From the sequence record OR327750.1: a DNA stretch of 64,000 nt; one strand, given 5' to 3'. Below the pieces are notes generated by a model. The model was given only the letters and a program-made list of their open reading frames with translations, did no database searches and was not told where the DNA came from. Below are positions 28,593 through 29,048 of the stretch, piece by piece; position 1 is the first letter of the stretch; each line of letters opens with the position of its first letter. The position numbers and the translations under genes were made by a program. The DNA is from Escherichia phage KK4.

Positions 28593-29048
28593 TTATTTTA
28601 AATCGTCTGCCCAATCGAGTTTAAGAGGCTCTTTGTATTCACGATCTAATACGACCGGAATTTGTACATCACCGCTAAATGATAAGGGTCCAACATTATA
28701 AGACAATGTTATATGCGGTGTGTAATCATCAAAATCATGTGTAGCACCTAGTGCCCGCGCATACATGTGTCTACAGCGCAGATATTCAGAATCTAGCACA
28801 AGTACAAGAGTCGATCCATCTTGTGTTTTCCATACTTCTAAATGTCCAGAAGAAGCTACTTCAAAACTTCCGCTCGATGGAACATACGGAACATTTATTC
28901 TTGAATAACATATGGTCGAATGAATTTTTTCTCTAGGAACTGGATTAGGAACACGTAAAGAGCGCTGAAGTTCTTCCAGCGCATCAAGTGTTAATTCTGA
29001 AAACTTAGCTGCTACATAAAGACCCGTTGAAAAGTCTTTAAATTCCAT
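28593..29048 (-). CDS. 57B: gp57B, 2H phosphoesterase-fold protein (Acb1-type cyclic-oligonucleotide phosphodiesterase)
   Basis: 151 aa; two H-x-T/S motifs (HSTICYS, HITLSY); matches T4 57B from memory. Confidence 0.85.

Follow-up and report, generated by a model that had tools for sequence, protein, structure and literature searches.

The DNA segment at positions 28593..29048 on the minus strand of Escherichia phage KK4 (OR327750.1) is almost certainly the acb1 gene (57B) of a T4-like phage (Tequatrovirus), and its product is predicted to be a 2H phosphoesterase directed against CBASS signals. We analysed the gene as part of a stretch of 64,000 nucleotides, the whole of which is referred to here as the window. 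An initial annotation had read the segment as gene 57B and its product as Acb1, a cleaver of cyclic oligonucleotide immune signals, and this reading is supported by orthology to the T4 gene, by the Pfam database and by the solved structure 7T26. The protein shares 150 of its 151 residues with residues 2-152 of T4 57B (NP_049750.1; 99.3% protein identity) and, judged by this identity together with the same flanking genes, it is the orthologue of T4 57B.

Identification of the acb1 product

The coordinates put forward in the initial annotation correspond exactly to one open reading frame, for which no strand had been stated and which lies on the minus strand. In the ORF listing this frame begins with an ATG at 29046-29048, ends with a TAA stop codon at 28593-28595 (included in the coordinates) and encodes a complete protein of 151 amino acids. 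Two plus-strand ORFs of 61 and 47 amino acids that overlap acb1 were without support and were dismissed as mechanical.

A Pfam scan matched the protein to the family PF23474 (Anti-CBASS protein Acb1) with an E-value of 7.8e-60 and a score of 201.2 bits against a cut-off of 27, residues 8-149 covering the profile end to end (positions 1-144 of 144). A sequence search of the PDB recovered the Acb1 protein of Erwinia phage FBB1 (7T26/7T27) at E=5.6e-62, with 67% identity over 141 aligned residues and a single one-residue gap; by homology to the solved structure 7T26, the acb1 product is predicted to adopt a 2H phosphoesterase fold. Two further weak matches in the same search were both entries named 'Anti-CBASS protein Acb1'. 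AlphaFold2 prediction of the 151-residue protein from its single sequence gave a low-confidence model (mean pLDDT 43.4, pTM 0.34). No NCBIfam model matched the acb1 product, and an Rfam search of both strands returned 11 tRNAs only, with nothing in or near acb1.

The strings HSTICYS and HITLSY, which the initial annotation had singled out as two H-x-T/S motifs spaced about 60 residues apart, are both found in the translation. The two motifs are indeed present, although both are strictly HxT, and the quoted spacing agrees with the 62 residues that separate the two strings but not with the distance from histidine to histidine, which is 69 residues. Two H-x-T/S motifs lying 50-90 residues apart were found in 5.5% of shuffled versions of the acb1 protein, and the narrower pattern, a pair of HxT motifs with a hydrophobic residue after each, in 0.04%. 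The motif pair by itself is thus weak evidence for Acb1 identity; it is the full-length matches to the Pfam Acb1 family, to 7T26 and to T4 57B that put the identification far beyond chance.

Active-site and ligand-contact residues

The structures of FBB1 Acb1 revealed a 2H phosphoesterase fold with an HxT/HxT active-site tetrad formed by H44, T46, H113 and T115 (PMC9117128). In Acb1, residues Y12, W74, F107 and W147 stack on the bases of the ligand, E141 reads the adenine N6, and residues 145-152 constitute a C-terminal lid that closes over the bound ligand (PMC9117128). The KK4 protein is one residue shorter at its N-terminus than T4 Acb1 and is without the extra methionine of the latter, so that T4 residue numbers correspond to KK4 numbers shifted by -1.

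All of these positions could be located in the KK4 protein. The tetrad is present as H43, T45, H112 and T114, column for column with T4 and FBB1 Acb1. The first catalytic motif, H43-S44-T45 (T4 H44/T46), with a role taken from Hobbs et al. (2022), is encoded at 28914..28922, and the second, H112-I113-T114 (T4 H113/T115), at 28707..28715, both on the minus strand. Whether the catalytic histidines coincide with the Acb1 active site had been raised in the initial annotation as the point on which its reading turned, and the alignment places both of them on T4 H44 and H113 and on their counterparts in the FBB1 structure. The base-stacking residues Y11, W73, F106 and W146 (T4 Y12, W74, F107 and W147) and the adenine-reading E140 (T4 E141) are also present. 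The lid segment, amino acids 144-151 (T4 145-152) including W146, is encoded at 28596..28619 on the minus strand and is the same as in T4, as are the last 31 residues as a whole.

Conservation was assessed independently of the T4 match by aligning the protein with six homologues drawn from annotated phage records and 30-47% identical to it: those of RB49 and of phages of Aeromonas, Acinetobacter, Vibrio, Citrobacter and Salicola. The tetrad and Y11 were invariant in all six, and the positions of W73 and F106 were aromatic in every homologue aligned. The position of W146 was aromatic wherever a residue aligned, the Aeromonas protein being shorter and ending before it, while the position of E140 was occupied by E in most homologues, by Q in one and by D in one. 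FBB1 Acb1, of which both an apo structure (7T26) and a structure with a 3'3'-cGAMP analogue (7T27) exist, has the same HxT/HxT tetrad, Y11, E140 and W146 as KK4, but carries F and Y where KK4 and T4 have W73 and F106; these are aromatic swaps that retain base stacking.

Predicted function and mechanism

Hobbs et al. (2022, Nature; PMC9117128) purified a 3'3'-cGAMP-cleaving activity from T4-infected cells, attributed it to gene 57B (NP_049750.1) and named the product Acb1, which became the founding member of a family of anti-CBASS nucleases. The reaction is metal-independent and proceeds in two steps via a cyclic phosphate intermediate, and a T4 Acb1 H44A/H113A double mutant is catalytically dead (PMC9117128). 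T4 deleted for acb1 loses all cGAMP cleavage, and while its growth is normal where CBASS is lacking, it suffers a more than 300-fold impairment on hosts that carry CBASS; published T4 transposon data also describe 57B as dispensable except on a CBASS host. Acb1 activity appears at about 15 min in T4 infection, and published T4 transcriptome data describe middle/late expression of 57B/acb1. For the KK4 gene, what is set out below on the activity of the enzyme, its substrate range and mechanism, its effect in vivo and its timing is carried over by analogy from this literature on a near-identical T4 protein.

The acb1 product would be a small, metal-independent 2H phosphoesterase whose U-shaped pocket would bind the cyclic messengers, di- and trinucleotides, that CBASS cyclases produce after infection (3'3'-cGAMP, cUA as well as cAAA). 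Y11, W73, F106 and W146 would stack on the bases of the ligand and E140 would read the adenine N6. In the ligand strained by this binding mode, the adenosine 2'-OH would attack the 3'-5' phosphodiester over the H43/T45/H112/T114 tetrad, and cleavage would yield first a 2',3'-cyclic phosphate intermediate and then a linear product with a 3'-phosphate, for example GpAp. With the signal removed, CBASS effectors (nucleases and phospholipases) would stay inactive and cell suicide before phage release would be averted, probably in the middle to late phase of infection.

The name Acb1 is used by none of the public phage records listed for acb1. Most GenBank records give 'hypothetical protein', one record of an acb1-type protein gives 'portal protein', an Acinetobacter phage record gives 'putative RNA 2',3'-cyclic phosphodiesterase', and the label attached to the family by PHROGs (phrog_755) and by RefSeq, in the latter case for T4 57B and many orthologues, is 'RNA ligase'. 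Taken at face value, such labels would make the product a LigT-like 2'-5' RNA ligase or an RNA 2',3'-cyclic phosphodiesterase engaged in RNA (tRNA) repair, and it speaks for this interpretation that a 2H fold with an HxT/HxT tetrad is common to LigT and CPDase enzymes and that a tRNA cluster lies about 1.4 kb from acb1. However, the Pfam scan at E<=0.1 gave the Acb1 family alone, with no LigT or 2H RNA-ligase family, and the PDB sequence search at E<=1 gave nothing but Acb1 entries and one spurious portal protein, with no LigT-type structure. Direct biochemistry has established that the 99%-identical T4 protein cleaves cyclic oligonucleotides, and the complete loss of cGAMP cleavage from lysates of the T4 deletion mutant, together with its normal growth without CBASS, also argues against a role in RNA repair. 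The 'RNA ligase' label was carried over from remote 2H-superfamily homology before the 2022 work; it is still being spread by RefSeq and PHROGs and is out of date for the Acb1 family. An RNA ligase or RNA repair enzyme is in consequence a very improbable reading that is already largely refuted, and we retain the identification of the product as Acb1.

Divergence from T4 57B

KK4 and T4 Acb1 are alike in the tetrad, the ligand-contact residues, the C-terminal lid, the orientation of the gene and its place between 57A and ipI. The sole substitution is I51 in KK4 where T4 has V52, which on the alignment is a conservative change outside the functional residues listed above; the T4 V52 site is five residues past the first catalytic threonine, on the same strand. 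Seven codons differ between the two coding sequences, six of them silent and one non-synonymous, a 6:1 ratio that is consistent with purifying selection, and the nucleotide identity to T4 is approximately 98% across a 571-base stretch aligned around acb1. The KK4-type allele is common among Tequatrovirus genomes, and 445 phage records hold the same or a nearly identical protein at >=99% identity.

The difference in length at the N-terminus can be followed to the stop codon of the preceding gene, 57A (site 29046..29050, minus strand). In T4 this stop codon is TGA (GAATGATGG), which creates an in-frame ATG one codon upstream, so that the annotated T4 57B has 152 amino acids; in KK4 it is TAA (GAATAATGG), and only one ATG is therefore available for acb1. 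From this the second ATG (MEFKDF...) would seem to suffice as a start for 57B, and it is possibly the real start in T4 too.

We considered whether these small differences could bear on function. The V52-to-I change, the missing N-terminal methionine or both could in principle have slight effects on the range of substrates or the level of expression, for instance through an adjusted cleavage of cA3 and hence an altered exposure to Panoptes-type guards, but nothing in the data points in this direction and we regard such an effect as highly unlikely. Where Panoptes guard systems are concerned, Acb1 activity is a disadvantage to the phage, and because it triggers this defence, natural as well as selected acb1 loss-of-function alleles exist in the Tevenvirinae. 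That the KK4 gene is itself an inactivated or decaying allele without anti-CBASS activity, comparable to the acb1 of phage Bas43 with its nonsense mutation or to the mutants that escape Panoptes, is less probable still, given a full-length ORF with no frameshift or premature stop, catalytic and ligand-binding residues that are all intact, a single and conservative change, the number of phage records that hold the same or a nearly identical protein, and the excess of synonymous over non-synonymous differences from T4. An intact acb1 thus remains the preferred reading of the KK4 gene.

Gene neighbourhood and putative promoters

The minus-strand order of gene 3, gene 1, 57A, acb1 (57B) and ipI is as in T4, and the order 3-1-57A-57B is also found in Aeromonas and Acinetobacter T4-like phages. 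Gene 57A, encoding the tail fibre chaperone, is directly upstream of acb1 (29048..29290, minus strand; Pfam GP57, E=2.6e-50), and gene 1, encoding dNMP kinase, is upstream of 57A (29290..30003, minus strand; Pfam DNMK, E=4.8e-104). The TAA stop codon of 57A and the ATG of acb1 overlap by one base (TAATG), which suggests that acb1 is translationally coupled to 57A.

A pattern search located the T4 late-promoter consensus TATAAATA within gene 1, at 29646..29653 on the minus strand and approximately 350 nt upstream of 57A and acb1. This pattern had 22 matches in the 64-kb window, compared with 10 expected, and the site at 29646-29653 may serve the 57A-acb1 pair as a late promoter; the onset of Acb1 activity at about 15 min and the middle/late transcription reported for T4 are consistent with such a promoter. 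A consensus scan also picked out a putative sigma-70/T4-early-type promoter (TTTACA-17-TACTAT, extended TG) between the acb1 stop codon and ipI, at 28551..28579 on the minus strand. The sequence of this promoter-like site is nearly identical in T4, and it would mark the point where the acb1 unit ends and ipI has a start of its own. A second promoter-like site with the same hexamers, spacing and extended TG is present at 28185..28213 (minus strand), so that the two bracket ipI, one upstream and one downstream. Overall, the scan for sigma-70 promoters and terminators around acb1 yielded 11 sites against 10.8 expected by chance, and only the two T4-early-like ones flanking ipI look meaningful.

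Other known or possible counter-defence genes of the window

The initial annotation had placed acb1 in the company of IPI, a macrodomain protein and Vs.4 as counter-defence candidates, and all three are present in the window. The ipI gene, encoding internal protein I, an inhibitor of the GmrSD nuclease, is next downstream of acb1 (28233..28520, minus strand; Pfam IPI_T4, E=2e-53), and its product is identical to that of T4 at 94 of 95 residues (99%). The vs.4 gene is acb2, the second anti-CBASS gene, which encodes a cyclic-nucleotide sponge (17905..18171, minus strand; Pfam Acb2_Tad1_hairpin, E=2.1e-20). Counted from the ATG at 18171, its product is identical to T4 Vs.4 at 84 of 88 residues (95%), the four differences being E13D, C50F, F52L and T64A. 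The mechanical ORF of vs.4 begins 12 codons farther upstream, at a TTG that probably is not the true start.

The macrodomain protein is the product of tk.4 (15743..16222, minus strand; Pfam Macro, E=6.6e-8). It is only 59% identical to T4 Tk.4, while the flanking DNA is 90-94% identical to T4, and tk.4 appears to be an allele, either evolving rapidly or exchanged, of what may be a counter-defence gene that reverses ADP-ribosylation. We also noted a weak resemblance of Tk.4 to the macrodomain of the DarG antitoxin (NCBIfam, E=6.4e-7, far under the cut-off).

As regards acb1 itself, KK4 simply has an almost identical copy of an anti-defence enzyme that is already well characterised, and the finding opens no new question. 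Its value is practical only, in that both known anti-CBASS genes, for the Acb1 nuclease and the Acb2 sponge, are intact in KK4. The phage is for this reason predicted to be resistant to many CBASS systems, and possibly to evade type III CRISPR signalling based on cA3, and would at the same time be predicted to be sensitive to Panoptes guard systems, which fire when decoy cyclic nucleotides are depleted.

Comparison of the window with T4

A megablast search with the 2-kb neighbourhood of acb1 matched Tequatrovirus genomes, with Escherichia phage vB_EcoM_G50 as the best match (99.7%) and 501 phage records covering >=80% of the query. The window as a whole is collinear with approximately 44.3-109.8 kb of T4 at 90-98% nucleotide identity, and where the two differ, it is chiefly in mobile and hyperplastic loci.

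Two paralogous ORFs of 187 and 157 amino acids (24243..24806 and 24932..25405, both minus strand), both assigned to PHROG 2280 ('unknown function'), lie within a 1.2-kb stretch that is without a T4 counterpart. At the N-terminus the two products read MKTYAEFLTEA and MKSYTQFLNEA, which is similar to the leader that targets T4 internal proteins to the capsid; T4 IPIII begins MKTYQEFIAEA and KK4 IPI begins MKTFKEF. The two ORFs probably encode alternative injected internal proteins and would thus be candidate anti-defence cargo. In the comparison with T4, ipII and ipIII were absent from the window, with the junction at approximately 20185-20192.

The tRNA cluster (26158..27178, minus strand) contains 11 tRNA genes (Arg, His, Asn, Tyr, Met/Ile-CAU, Thr, Ser, Pro, Gly, Leu and Gln) compared with 8 in T4, and the KK4 cluster lacks segB, the homing endonuclease gene by which that of T4 is interrupted. 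The window is also without the T4 I-TevII intron, mobD, segC and segD. The place of mobD is taken by the segment 10905..11890 (minus strand), with a product predicted to be a membrane protein (phrog_944) and a putative transcription factor of y05I type (Pfam T4_y05I_N/C). Directly behind gene 5, at a point that is empty in T4, a 288-amino-acid ORF at 34337..35203 (plus strand) matches the homing-endonuclease family phrog_314 (E=7e-26); ahead of this ORF, at 34314-34321, is a late-promoter consensus. Within the short tail fibre gene 12 (45500..47050), 375 nt at 46363..46737 (plus strand) have no detectable nucleotide match to T4 while the rest of the gene matches, probably reflecting a swap of the receptor-binding region.

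Comparison with related systems

LigT 2'-5' RNA ligase, CPDase, and the AKAP7-type and viral 2',5'-phosphodiesterases have two HxT/S motifs and use metal-independent acid-base catalysis via a 2',3'-cyclic phosphate. Acb1 resembles these other 2H phosphoesterases in carrying its two motifs on a 2H fold, but none of them matched the acb1 product in sequence at E<=0.1, and the substrate of Acb1 is a cyclic di- or trinucleotide immune signal, as opposed to an RNA end or 2-5A. The strategy of Acb1, removal of the second messenger, is the same as that of Acb2 (T4 Vs.4), Apyc1, poxins and ring nucleases, all of which are structurally unrelated to it: Acb2 is a sponge and not an enzyme, and Apyc1 is an enzyme of the metallo-beta-lactamase fold that is specific for cyclic mononucleotides.
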